A DNA stretch of 64,000 nt from a virus (lineage: Duplodnaviria; Heunggongvirae; Uroviricota; Caudoviricetes). Position 1 is the stretch's first letter; every line of letters starts with the position of its first letter. The stretch lies in the IMG/VR virus record IMGVR_UViG_3300045988_138358; one strand, 5' to 3'. This document shows, one piece after another, positions 6,301 to 55,312 of this stretch. The translations under genes were made by a program, and so were the position numbers. The notes below the pieces were generated by a model that made no database searches, was not told where the DNA came from, and saw only the letters and a program-made list of their open reading frames with translations.

Positions 6301-6344
6301 CCAATTGTGTTAGAAAATTCTATTCAATTATCTAACACAATTGG
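6301..6344. promoter_or_regulatory. inverted pair of TGTTAGA operator-like half-sites upstream of rdgC
   Basis: CCAATTGTGTTAGA ... TCTAACACAATTGG, perfect 14-bp inverted repeat with 16-bp spacer, ending 7 bp from the rdgC start. Confidence 0.55.
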
Positions 6345-26959: not shown

Positions 26960-26979
26960 TACTGTATGAATAAACAGTA
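26960..26979. promoter_or_regulatory. LexA (SOS) box upstream of humD
   Basis: TACTGTATGAATAAACAGTA fits CTGT-N8-ACAG, centred about 30 bp before the humD start. Confidence 0.75.
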
Positions 26980-52512: not shown

Positions 52513-52934
52513 CAGTGTGCCTCCGCAATTCCGGGATTGGTAATATTGCGATACCAAGGATTAGTGTTTGGTTGTGATGAAGTAGAGAAACGGCCAGTCA
52601 GGACGCCATGTTGATCAGGGATCAGAGAACGGGCTTCTTTTTCAGTTGCGGCAATTGCGAAGTGATCACAGTGTTTTTGCAGGGAGTGGAAACGCCAGAT
52701 AAATTCCGGGCGCGAGCAAGGATTGGCATTAACCATAGTTACGGCCTCATTCGTAGGTTTAACAACCTGCGCCCCGCTGCTAAACGGGTGGCAGGACGTG
52801 ACGGGGTTAGCAGACTGGCACGAATGAAACCAGCAGGCCGAAGCCTCCCCATCACGCCCCACCATAATTCGGGCGTAACGTGGTTTTACGGACACAAAAA
52901 TACCGCAATATCGGATATCTGCGGTTGTCCGCAT
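52512..52934 (-). CDS. Icd/Ash-like small protein (tentative)
   Basis: Overlaps the start of the Rha/Ant-like gene as icd does in P1; the 5' part may be structured leader RNA rather than coding. Confidence 0.3.
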   Translation of the reverse strand: MRTTADIRYCGIFVSVKPRYARIMVGRDGEASACWFHSCQSANPVTSCHPFSSGAQVVKPTNEAVTMVNANPCSRPEFIWRFHSLQKHCDHFAIAATEKEARSLIPDQHGVLTGRFSTSSQPNTNPWYRNITNPGIAEAH

Positions 52935-53066
52935 TCGTATTCAGGCTGCTAAACCCGGTCGCAGAATTTGCTACGACGACATGAATATAAGCCTGAAAAC
53001 ATGGAAGATCAACTAAAAATTTCAGCAATGGATGACTTCAGTCGATGATGCAGATCATACATTCCG

Positions 53067-53097
53067 ATTTAGAAACAGCAAATTAATTTTCTAACAC
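53067..53097. promoter_or_regulatory. operator pair and promoter for the icd/ant-like operon
   Basis: On the minus strand: TGTGTTAGAAAAT, 16 bp, TTCTAAAT, then TGTATGAT (extended -10-like). Confidence 0.5.
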
Positions 53098-53150
53098 AAA
53101 TTATCGGGCGAGCATTTTCCGATCATTGGGATGCTTTGTAGACACACAGG

Positions 53151-54113
53151 TCATCCCCTAAATCCCGCAGGGATTGACCAATCCTCACGGTCAAATTCAG
53201 ACCGATAGCCACGCTGTTTCATCAGGTCAAAGGCTTCACCAATGGTTGCACACCCCTGGGAGCCAGAATAATCCATTGAGAAATCCAGGGCACTGGATTG
53301 TTTAGGCTTATTCACTGCGGTAGCGGCACTACGTATCCATGCAAATTTTTTTGCCAGCTTTTCAGCGGTACGATACAGAGCCTGCCGTTTTGTGTGCCCC
53401 TCGTCTGAACGACGCTTTGCAGCTCTCGCTTTTGCCGCCGCCAGGCAGTGGTTGGTATGTTCTTCCCTGATTGCTGTTTTTTTATCCAGTACCCCGTGAT
53501 CCGTTTGAGAACTATCTGCTGGTGAAGCCTTTGGCTGAACCGCGCATGATCTTTCTCTTCTTTTGGCTATAGAGTGACTCTTATTTTCTATTGGCTGTTC
53601 ATTTTGAACATGGGGGGACTTGTTCAATTTGAACAGGGGGTTCCCAGTTTCAAAAAAATAACGAACCTTTGAAATCAACTGCTTAACCAGTTTTGTGGCG
53701 TTGGCAAATTTGATGCCCTGCTTACCCCCTATCTCCATTGCTACATGAATGAAGTGGAGAAATTGTGTCGTAAACCGATATACGTTACACACCTGGGCAT
53801 TGTTATTCGCTACCTGATGTTGCTTAACAAGCATTCCGCACTTCGTCGCTTCAGCAAATGCCCGGCGTACAGTAGAAATACTGCGTCCTGTAATCTCGGA
53901 CATATCAGCATATGAGCGACGGATCATGTATTCATCGGTAGACCCTGCCAGGTTGGCGAACTCGGCAATAATGGCGCTATGTGAAGGAGAAAGAAGACCA
54001 CTATGACGAGCAAAAAAACTCAACTGATGACCTTTGATTTTTTTGTGGTATTCAGTGTTGTTTTTATACTCAGAAGTGTTGAAAGTTACTGAAACTGAAT
54101 TTAAAATATTCAT
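53151..54113 (-). CDS. repL: RepL-like replication protein (putative)
   Basis: HTH segment DMSEITGRSISTVRRAFAEATKCGMLV; internal repeats and an operator-linked promoter parallel the P1 lytic replicon. Confidence 0.4.
   Translation of the reverse strand: MNILNSVSVTFNTSEYKNNTEYHKKIKGHQLSFFARHSGLLSPSHSAIIAEFANLAGSTDEYMIRRSYADMSEITGRSISTVRRAFAEATKCGMLVKQHQVANNNAQVCNVYRFTTQFLHFIHVAMEIGGKQGIKFANATKLVKQLISKVRYFFETGNPLFKLNKSPHVQNEQPIENKSHSIAKRRERSCAVQPKASPADSSQTDHGVLDKKTAIREEHTNHCLAAAKARAAKRRSDEGHTKRQALYRTAEKLAKKFAWIRSAATAVNKPKQSSALDFSMDYSGSQGCATIGEAFDLMKQRGYRSEFDREDWSIPAGFRG
53604..53640. repeat. TTGAACA / TGTTCAA repeats with G-runs inside the repL-like gene (candidate origin)
   Basis: TTGAACATGGGGGGAC-TTGTTCAA-TTTGAACAGGGGG. 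Confidence 0.35.
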
Positions 54114-54173
54114 CAGATAGTTCCGTGCAAAAATCTATCTACCGTATAAATCTATGCCAGTGGATTTATACAC

Positions 54174-54207
54174 CAAAAAGCCGCTTCTCAGCGGCTTTTG
54201 CTTTTTT
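54174..54207. terminator. bidirectional hairpin terminator
   Basis: A-run, GCCGC-TTCTCA-GCGGC stem, T-run. Confidence 0.55.
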
Positions 54208-54313
54208 TGGCAGTCGCTACCGGAGCAGTGACCGCGATCCTACTCGATCACATCGGACAGGATCAACAGTGTATATAAATACACTATGTTAGAAATTTAA
54301 TTTCATGCAGCGG

Positions 54314-55312
54314 TTATCCCCGTCGCGAAACGAAGAGTAATGGGGTAGTATTTTTGCTCTCCTTCGGCGATAACTCCGGCTCTTTCTTGCCTGATATCGG
54401 CAAGCCATAAGTCGCATTTGCCCCCAGAGATTCAAGCATCGCAGCCACTATGCGAGCATCATCTTCAGACTGCATACGGCAGAGCGCCCGACGCTGTTCT
54501 GCGCTGATAAAAACAGGCAGCTCCTGGATAGCATCACGCAAAATCCTACGGCATTTCTTCGCATCTTCGCCCTGGCTTTCCATCATTGCGGCCTGGTTGC
54601 GTAATTTGTCGCGAAGTTGCATATTTTCCACTTCAAGGAGCATCAATTCTGACTCAAGGGCTTCACGCTGTGCTGACTCGAAAATAGCCTGCTGATTCTT
54701 CATTGCTGAAAAGTGGTGAACAAGATCCGTAGCCGCGTTATCGGTAAAACCTTGTTCGATAAGTGCCGCATGAATAGCCGCGTCGCGCTCTTCTGCTGAT
54801 TCAAGCATCAGGCTTTTCTTGTCGAGGCTGATATAGTTAGGAACAGTTACGTAATCAAAGCCGTGGAAAGACTTTACCAGGGATACCGATGAATCTGGAC
54901 CAGATGTAGCCCACGACCAACCACCAGCACCAGAGTTAATCATGCCCTGAACAATACGCCCGGTGTCTGTATCCAGTATTTCCTGCGTATGAGTAACAAT
55001 GCCGTTGTCGTCAATCGAAATGTCGATAGTCCTGTTTGACGGCACGTTCTCCAATACAACAGGCTTCCCATCTACCATCACAACAGAGACTTCCGGCAAG
55101 TTCAGGCTTTTCGTTTTGTTATAGTGCATCGCCCGGCGACCATGACCGTAATAACCATACATCTCACCCAGCGCGATACGCTCTTTTGTTTCTGGCGAGT
55201 TGAATGTGTCTCGTACCGACTGAATGACGTAATTTCGGTTGTTCTGCGGTGTGTGTTTGCGGATTTTCTCTACCAGGGAGAAGCGATCCGTAACAGTATT
55301 CAGTGATTGCAT
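54314..55312 (-). CDS. head morphogenesis protein (protease or scaffold, tentative)
   Basis: 332 aa with C-terminal coiled coil, immediately after the putative portal gene. Confidence 0.3.
   Translation of the reverse strand: MQSLNTVTDRFSLVEKIRKHTPQNNRNYVIQSVRDTFNSPETKERIALGEMYGYYGHGRRAMHYNKTKSLNLPEVSVVMVDGKPVVLENVPSNRTIDISIDDNGIVTHTQEILDTDTGRIVQGMINSGAGGWSWATSGPDSSVSLVKSFHGFDYVTVPNYISLDKKSLMLESAEERDAAIHAALIEQGFTDNAATDLVHHFSAMKNQQAIFESAQREALESELMLLEVENMQLRDKLRNQAAMMESQGEDAKKCRRILRDAIQELPVFISAEQRRALCRMQSEDDARIVAAMLESLGANATYGLPISGKKEPELSPKESKNTTPLLFVSRRG

Follow-up and report, generated by a model that had tools for sequence, protein, structure and literature searches.

A D6-like, P1-related lytic-replication module with a probable replication origin inside its repL gene

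The virus record IMGVR_UViG_3300045988_138358 (Caudoviricetes) was analysed over a stretch of 64,000 nucleotides, referred to here as the window, and the present work concerns its interval 53151-54300, which holds the lytic replication gene repL together with the DNA that precedes it. Between positions 53000 and 54400 the window is 98.4% identical in nucleotide sequence to phage D6, and about 100 plasmids of E. coli, Salmonella and Shigella (~90 kb) match the same stretch at 97-99.6% identity; the window is thus part of a D6-like, P1-related phage-plasmid. With 111 plasmid records, phage-plasmids of D6 type are frequent in both E. coli and Salmonella. The genes are ordered prt, pro, repL, C4 antisense RNA with its targets, icd and anti-repressor. 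Read toward repL, the stop codon of pro at 54314 comes ahead of the repL leader, and between pro and repL there is no open reading frame (ORF), hence no kilA as the first gene of the operon. The interval is the lytic-replication module of this phage-plasmid. As an element it is of an ordinary kind, a variant on the P1-type lytic replicon already known; a scan of genome contigs returned two P1-like loci only.

The gene, described as RepL-like in the first-pass annotation, encodes a true, full-length homologue of P1 RepL. The ORF is 97.5% identical to D6 orf20, annotated as 'lytic replication protein, similar to P1 repL', and BLASTP aligns P1 RepL with residues 28-320 of the window protein (E 4e-30, 29% identity, 293 aligned columns), up to the C-terminal end WxIPAGFRG. 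The window protein used as a tblastn query matches P1, P7 and their relatives, phrog_2418 holds both the window and the P1 RepL, and PF26868 (Phage_P1_RepL) is carried by relatives, including a 97%-identical cluster representative. Local Pfam and NCBIfam scans of the window RepL gave no match to a RepL model and only a weak HTH_36 match, PF05732 (the RepL of Firmicute plasmids) was not matched at E <= 0.01, and a sequence search of the PDB returned only marginal winged-helix matches. In the AlphaFold (AF2) model, which has a mean predicted local distance difference test (pLDDT) score of 61.6, a confident winged-helix domain spans residues ~20-157 and residues 159-219 form a disordered linker. 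Foldseek placed MarR-type regulators and other winged-helix proteins nearest to this domain, with modest scores; MarR regulators are dimers that bind dyads. The repL start codon (54111-54113) is ATG in the window and GTG in phage D6 and most relatives.

Within repL lies a 20-nt direct repeat, TGTTCATTTTGAACATGGGG (53596-53615) and TGTTCAATTTGAACAGGGGG (53621-53640), whose copies are 90% identical and 25 nt apart. The repeats noticed earlier at about 53604-53640 were thus located where they had been reported, as two tandem units of a C-run and a dyad: each 20-nt unit contains a perfect 6-3-6 inverted repeat, TGTTCA-N3-TGAACA, and the coding strand from 53640 down to 53596 reads CCCCC-TGTTCAAATTGAACA-AG-TCCCCCC-A-TGTTCAAAATGAACA. 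The two copies inside repL are the only occurrences of TGTTCANNNTGAACA in the 64 kb, and the dyad pattern with at most one mismatch has 3 matches in the 64 kb against 0.22 expected from shuffles. A G-quadruplex was considered and rejected, the G-runs being too few. It is extremely unlikely that the repeats are chance or the by-product of a repeated peptide, with no role at the DNA level. In P1 and in Enterobacter-type relatives the units are 24 nt apart and encode PCQND/PCQDD and RSDQ/RSDH, as a peptide repeat would; in the window, however, units 25 nt apart are read in different frames (PLFKLNK versus PHVQNEQ), which excludes a peptide repeat as their cause, the chance expectation is low, the encoded peptide is predicted to be disordered, and the dyad arms are kept in relatives while the spacers alter the protein. 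The features of the locus are collected in Table 1.

Table 1. Features in and around the repL interval of the window (positions are those of the window)
Feature	Position	Strand	Remarks
repL, lytic replication initiator, 320 aa	53151-54113	-	ORF; D6 orf20
Origin unit 1	53621-53640	-	CCCCC and dyad TGTTCA-AAT-TGAACA; proposed RepL site
Origin unit 2	53596-53617	-	CCCCCC-A and dyad TGTTCA-AAA-TGAACA; starts 25 nt after unit 1
A-rich tract	53547-53595	-	49 bp, 66% A+T, 70% purine (sense strand), ending GATC
G+C-rich flank	53524-53546	-	small palindrome AGCC-AAA-GGCT
T-tract	53651-53661	-	TTATTTTTTTG, flanking the dyads; P1 has TTTAATTTTTTA at the same place
Integration host factor (IHF) consensus match	53673-53685	+	AATCAACTGCTTA (pattern WATCAANNNNTTR); just upstream of the dyads in gene direction
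Operator-like site	54287-54303	+	TGTTAGAAATTTAATTT, monovalent; probable D6-type C1 operator
Palindrome	54268-54285		AGTGTAT-N4-ATACACT (CAGTGTAT-N4-ATACACTG; 5' neighbour C/T), beside the -35
Promoter-like element	54237-54266	-	TTGATC (-35), N18, TAGGAT (-10); predicted start ~54230
Hairpin terminator with T-run	54176-54209	+	10-pair stem and 4-nt loop at 54176-54199, T-run to 54209
Inverted repeat	54144-54171		GTATAAATC-N10-GATTTATAC; leader/countertranscript hairpin, or operator
Antisense promoter-like element	54079-54107	+	TTGAAA-17-TAAAAT in repL codons 2-11, directed away from the gene
Candidate countertranscript	54114-54209	+	~95 nt; complementary to repL leader and ribosome-binding region
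Second operator with c4-icd-ant promoter	53054-53096	-	operator 53080-53096 overlapping TTGCTG-16-TATGAT, just after repL

In 2023 the exact lytic origin (oriL) of P1 was reported to be unknown (PMC9948254). Synonymous changes in AT2, a 43-bp A/T-rich stretch at repL nt ~495-540, abolish RepL-driven plasmid amplification, whereas the IHF and DnaA sites of P1 are dispensable; an 88-bp fragment named T5, which consists of ccccctccccctgtcaggatgacg, AT2 and cagtttccggcggtgccgg and so joins a single dyad unit and a flank to AT2, suffices as RepL target when placed in trans (PMC9948254). Our comparison of the window repL with P1 repL placed the best local DNA alignment exactly here, between gene nt 472-567 of the window (53642-53547) and P1 nt 449-540, with a score of 38 against 21.6 +/- 2.1 for shuffles (largest 34), a difference of ~7.7 standard deviations. 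This stretch encodes the part of the protein in which the window and P1 RepL are least alike. At the equivalent place P1 has CCCCC-A-TGTCAAAATGATA and CCCCCTCCCCC-TGTCAGGATGACG, unit 2 of the window aligns to the P1 unit within the minimal T5 fragment, and the A-rich tract of the window, GCCAATAGAAAATAAGAGTCAC...AAAGATCA, parallels GGCAATAAAGAATAAGAAGTCAC...AAAGATCA of P1. The likeness to the P1 lytic origin inside repL, proposed from the repeats in the first place, is therefore borne out at the level of sequence, since the repeats fall in the stretch that aligns to the minimal P1 oriL target. Positions 53547-53595 are the homologue of P1 AT2 and a proposed DNA-unwinding element.

Gene nt 472-567 encode RepL residues 158-189, and because the peptide is predicted to be disordered there, the origin-like DNA sits where the protein constraint on repL is least. 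Among genes of the D6 clade, a hypervariable 60-nt stretch (53454-53513) was also observed in the linker region of repL, with a nucleotide diversity of 0.12-0.13 against a mean of 0.036.

Our family comparison, which is based on about seven lineages (numbered with an L), revealed that the dyads are conserved in a manner distinct from the coding sequence around them. In the lineage L003/L033, whose RepL is 65% identical and whose repL differs from that of the window at 30% of bases, the 24 dyad-arm bases and 11 C-run bases are without change, all 5 differences in the 47-nt block are confined to spacers or linker, and the longest mismatch-free runs cluster at 53524-53693; an 18-nt run in the G+C-rich flank is identical. 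Within the D6 clade the dyad arms are invariant and a single sequence has a change in the C-run of unit 1. The spacer of unit 1 varies between AAT, AAA and TTT with amino-acid changes; the change from AAT to TTT (Lys to Ile), seen in one D6-clade sequence, leaves the arms intact. Nucleotide diversity at the origin-like stretch is low in the D6 clade, and in 47 distinct genes of the P1 clade it dips likewise: a stretch of 45 nt usually has 5-10 variable sites, and here it has 1-2.

More distant relatives carry a different dyad at the same place. The Enterobacter-type elements (L004, L091-L093, L097), whose RepL is 32-36% identical to that of the window, have CGGTC-TGATCA-NNN-TGATCA twice, 24 nt apart and with varying spacers, followed by GGACAAAAGAAAAGAAGAC..., and further lineages of the P1 branch (L094-L096) have two copies of a C-run with TGTCA-N3-TGACA, after which come an A-rich tract, GATC and the palindrome TTCCGG...CCGGAA. 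The flank 53524-53546 of the window is the counterpart of the CCGG palindromes that follow the A-rich tract in other lineages (P1, L094-L096, L004). Judged from these alignments, the layout of the whole family is two units of G/C block and dyad, ~50 bp of A-rich DNA and a G+C-rich palindrome. Conservation of the repeats in relatives, the lack of which would have refuted the proposal according to the first-pass annotation, was observed, with arms kept and spacers varying, and selection at the DNA level is the sole explanation for this pattern. An origin, oriL, very probably lies inside repL, in the part that encodes the disordered linker.

The two units of the Enterobacter-type elements (L004 2895-2935; L091-L093, L097) form a 17-bp perfect inverted repeat with four GATC sites (CCGATCAGCATGATCAG...CTGATCATGCTGATCGG), which suggests that this type of origin may be under Dam/SeqA control.

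The change of the dyad sequence with the RepL lineage would be anticipated if each initiator recognises a site of its own. We give an even chance to a joint reading in which TGNTCA-N3-TGANCA (in the P1 branch the shorter TGTCA-N3-TGACA), always between a C/G-rich block and an A-rich tract, is the RepL element, its central bases set the specificity of each lineage (D6 type TGTTCA, Enterobacter type TGATCA, P1 type TGTCA) and the module is remotely related to that of lambda. Alternatively, the dyads might serve a different protein, for instance a regulator of host or phage origin or a roadblock, or they might act as RNA or DNA hairpins, while RepL reads the A-rich tract only. This would agree with P1, in which only AT2 was shown to matter (PMC9948254), and is nevertheless improbable, given that a shared host factor would not be expected to follow the RepL lineages through TGTTCA, TGTCA and TGATCA, that the minimal P1 fragment keeps one unit, and that a winged-helix fold suits a dyad.

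Upstream of repL, the operator-like motif reported at about 54288 proved to be a member of a family of 12 operators. After the pro stop codon, read toward repL, stands GAAATTAAATTTCTAACAT, the complement of which is TGTTAGAAATTTAATTT. The family, described by TGTTAGAAAAYTAATTT, has 12 matches in the window at up to 3 mismatches (6308, 16137, 16787, 20883, 31137, 32538, 37015, 40725, 40881, 42131, 53080 and 54287) against 0.31 from shuffles, none of which reaches 12. Other copies precede homologues of c1, lpa, ref and c4. At 6308, 16787, 20883 and 37015 a TCTAACA stands 5-6 nt behind the operator, and the pair makes up a large, imperfect palindrome resembling a bivalent C1 operator of P1. The C1 operators of P1 are distributed in a parallel way, and the TGTTAGAAAAYTAATTT family therefore probably represents the C1 operators of D6; the P1 C1 operator consensus ATTGCTCTAATAAATTT itself, searched with as many as 3 mismatches, matched neither the window nor D6. 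The copy at 54287-54303 overlaps only a weaker promoter candidate, TTTCTA-16-TACACT.

The neighbouring palindrome (54268-54285) is conserved in the L003, L004 and L005 lineages, with the right arm only in L091, and is the sole copy in the window and in D6. Three roles for it were considered and set aside. A LexA box matches at 16 of 20 consensus positions, but GTG..CAC replaces the critical CTG..CAG; a late promoter was rejected, as the palindrome does not fit the D6 late pattern of AAATCACA and a -10; and autoregulation by RepL is unlikely, as the palindrome is largely kept in lineages with different origin dyads.

All promoter assignments in this work are consensus matches. The hexamers of the repL promoter TTGATC-N18-TAGGAT and their 18-nt spacing are kept in five lineages, in which the spacer sequence is completely replaced, and of its three GATC sites one overlaps the -35 hexamer (54261-64), one the spacer (54246-49) and one the -10 hexamer (54236-39). 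The P1 promoter P53 has three Dam sites as well, one of them in its -35.

Alternatively, the real repL promoter could lie after the hairpin terminator, as TTGGTG-16-TAGATT at ~54148-54175 with ATAAATC-N10-GATTTAT as its operator; the hairpin would then merely end the late prt-pro operon and a countertranscript, and the TTGATC/TAGGAT blocks would serve otherwise, e.g., in Dam/SeqA or protein binding. We regard this as possible but doubtful. Matches of 7/12 with 16-18 nt spacing are found at this position in the D6, L005 and L003 lineages, and the arms of the inverted repeat at 54144-54171 are kept in the D6 clade while its loop varies, with one compensatory arm change in L003. The match is weak, though, and absent from the Enterobacter-type lineages, which have leaders of at least 250 nt, whereas TTGAT(C/T)-N18-TAGGAT is the only candidate present in all five lineages despite the complete turnover of its spacer, and the T-tail in the sense direction is poor in three lineages, which would be odd for a dedicated operon terminator.

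The hairpin itself begins ~30 nt downstream of the repL start predicted from TTGATC-N18-TAGGAT. Compensatory changes in the stem of the relative L004 (GTCGCC...GGCGAC) indicate that the stem is real. The arrangement of promoter, terminator and gene proposed in the first-pass annotation held in part: the hairpin was located and the order of promoter-like element, hairpin and gene is conserved in five lineages, but the strong T-tail is on the strand opposite to repL in three lineages. The terminator scan called it only on the + strand, antisense to repL, in the window, L003 and L004, and the T-run is TTTTGCTTTTTTT on the antisense strand versus TTTTTGG in the direction of repL (4-6 T).

Facing this terminator is the antisense promoter-like element TTGAAA-17-TAAAAT, which matches the consensus at 10/12 positions and keeps both hexamers in L003 with 5 spacer changes. 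The longer leaders of L004 and L091 contain, on this strand too, TTGCGC/TTGCGT-16-TATAAT preceded by a TG, and strong antisense promoter-like sites facing the terminator are thereby present in all four D6-family lineages examined. The RNA that would run from this promoter to the hairpin is predicted to fold into three hairpins (-31 kcal/mol, z = -5.3), and Rfam has no family for the repL leader or for the countertranscript. According to the GenBank annotation of P1, the 5' end of kilA contains PaskilA, an antisense promoter once named P53as; Heinrich and colleagues reportedly described in 1995 that the P1 antisense promoter lowers repL expression, and a literature search on P53as returned nothing useful. 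A 75-nt stretch rich in A/T tracts (54009-54083), just upstream of the antisense promoter, was invariant in 21 distinct genes.

Two functions had been suggested for the hairpin, attenuation and a transcript that primes the origin, and neither was supported. Under classical attenuation, termination at the leader hairpin would be regulated, and an antiterminator protein or a second RNA fold would switch on read-through into repL. The order of elements retained in five lineages would be in keeping with this; we nevertheless judge it quite unlikely. The predicted leader fold consists of independent hairpins without an alternative anti-terminator pairing, the T-tail is strong only on the antisense strand, and no candidate antiterminator was identified. 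Taken together with the antisense promoter that faces the hairpin, these observations are better explained by a countertranscript, and with moderate confidence we propose a countertranscript with a leaky terminator in place of attenuation or priming. A short transcript from the operator-controlled promoter that primes or activates the origin is very unlikely. The lambda origin does need transcription nearby. Transcription of P1 repL is likewise essential for P1 lytic replication (PMC9948254). A transcript that ends at the hairpin (54176-54199), however, would stop ~540 bp short of the origin-like DNA and thus cannot prime there, and only read-through transcripts, i.e. the repL mRNA itself, cross the origin.

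The homology of RepL, the repeats, their pattern of conservation and the motif statistics are demonstrated by the present data, and we consider it probable that the interval is a D6-like lytic replicon with oriL in repL, an operator-guarded promoter and a convergent countertranscript. That RepL binds, that the tract melts, that the promoter is used and that a countertranscript exists and has a role, we infer from the sequence, from comparison and from experiments on P1. By analogy with P1 and lambda, RepL dimers would bind the dyads; the A-rich tract beside them would melt, and host or phage replisome proteins would be loaded there. In the prophage repL would be silent; the C1-type operator (54287-54303) and the palindrome abut a weak sigma-70 promoter with three Dam sites. 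A repL transcript would pass the hairpin, which may terminate weakly in the sense direction and strongly terminate the convergent countertranscript started in the first repL codons. This RNA, or its transcription, probably damps RepL synthesis, like P53as in P1. Such damping would fit the toxicity of high RepL activity in P1, which is stated in a section heading of the P1 study (PMC9948254).

Several observations weigh against this reading. All function in D6 and in the window element has been assigned by inference. The authors of the P1 work remarked on the C/G-rich sequence before AT2 and left its role in P1 unprobed; they did not decide whether RepL acts on AT2 or on the preceding sequence, and binding of RepL to DNA was undemonstrated (PMC9948254). 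In the window the dyads are two only, no DnaA boxes occur in 53101-54320, and the GC skew goes with the direction of the genes and does not switch at repL. With a position of about -57 to -73, the C1 operator is not placed over the core promoter, TTGATC-N18-TAGGAT agrees with the consensus at 8/12 positions with an 18-nt spacer, and other weak promoter candidates exist upstream of repL. The hexamers of the antisense promoter stand in conserved codons (ILN, TFN), and their conservation is therefore ambiguous. Comparison of the RepL profile with lambda O by hhalign gave a probability of 1%, which is not significant, and RepL has a Pfam family of its own.

The module resembles that of P1 in several respects. 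The initiators are homologous, and at the homologous gene position both have origin-like DNA composed of C-run/dyad units, an A-rich tract with a terminal GATC and a flank rich in G+C. Repressor operators, probable ones in the window, precede and follow the gene, and the promoter carries three Dam sites. The 5' end of the first gene holds an antisense promoter, a promoter-like element in the window, that is directed at a terminator. An IHF site occurs in P1 at the place equivalent to window 53673-53685. The two differ in gene order, as in P1 kilA precedes repL and the immunity operon comes first, whereas in the window repL follows the head genes prt-pro, c4-icd-ant lies downstream and there is no kilA. 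Since kilA is dispensable for P1 replication (PMC9948254), its absence does not exclude membership among P1-type replicons. The dyads are TGTTCA-N3-TGAACA, perfect and 25 nt apart, in the window, and TGTCA-N3-TGAYR, imperfect and 24 nt apart, in P1. The window operator differs from that of P1 in sequence and lies upstream of the core promoter, while that of P1 lies over the -10; the terminator is inside the leader in the window and upstream of the promoter in P1; and the window replicon has no DnaA box, unlike P1.

With phage lambda the module shares an origin within the initiator's own gene, between the parts for its two domains, and the order of dyad repeats with C/G runs, an A-rich tract of ~40-50 bp with a purine-rich sense strand, and a palindrome. 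An N-terminal DNA-binding domain is known in lambda O and predicted in RepL. Lambda differs in having four 18-bp iterons against two units in the window, and the helicase loader lambda P has no identified counterpart beside repL. Weak matches of the N-terminal part to phrog_391 ('replication initiation O-like') were obtained for the window (E 4e-7), P1 (1e-5) and L004 (3e-7), and L004 RepL also matches phrog_678 (1e-6), a family to which the N-terminus of lambda O has a match at 2e-35. The RepL/oriL module may thus work in a manner analogous to lambda O/ori-lambda, and no membership of one family is claimed.

Iteron plasmids (Rep_3/RepA; P1 oriR, the D6 orf42 replicon) likewise have initiator-binding repeats adjoining an A+T-rich unwinding element, but theirs are several direct iterons of 17-22 bp outside the gene, with DnaA boxes and a PF01051 initiator. 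The window module is not a Rep_3 theta replicon in this sense, as neither PF01051 in the Pfam scan nor a DnaA box in 53101-54320 was found. A short structured antisense RNA complementary to the initiator mRNA leader, as predicted in the window, is known from R1 (CopA) and pT181/pIP501. In the pT181 type, however, the antisense RNA acts upstream of the terminator and induces it, whereas that of the window would start downstream of the hairpin and end there; the window leader is also predicted to form separate hairpins, not the mutually exclusive preemptor and terminator folds of the pT181 type.

The comparison of the D6-type gene with P1 and other lineages separates protein from DNA constraint and singles out a small dyad beside the functional A-rich tract as a probable, testable RepL site. 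If the joint reading of the RepL element is true, P1 oriL is precisely defined and orthogonal initiator-origin pairs become available for copy-number control. The D6-type lytic replicon is wired unlike that of P1, without kilA, with the immunity operon downstream and with the terminator inside the leader.

Directly downstream of repL, at 52784-52990 (- strand), are the C4 antisense RNA (Rfam RF01695, 71.9 bits) and its a1/b1 target element (RF03163, 52.2 bits), then icd and a Rha-type anti-repressor. A match to isrK, a Salmonella small RNA family, at 52896-52977 (- strand) overlaps the c4 target region and scores 46.5 bits against a gathering score of 50. Phage D6 has two icd-antirepressor modules (orf19-18 and orf83-82). 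The late operons of D6 (L006/L007) have a common AAATCACA upstream of orf22, 25, 36, 41, 51, 69 and 78, with a -10-like hexamer ~8 nt later, and on the other strand AAATCACA reads as the -22 box (AAGTGATTT) of LPlyz, a late promoter of P1. A true LexA-type box, ACTGTATGAATAAACAGT, is present at 26961-26978, ~20 nt before a homologue of humD (umuD-like).

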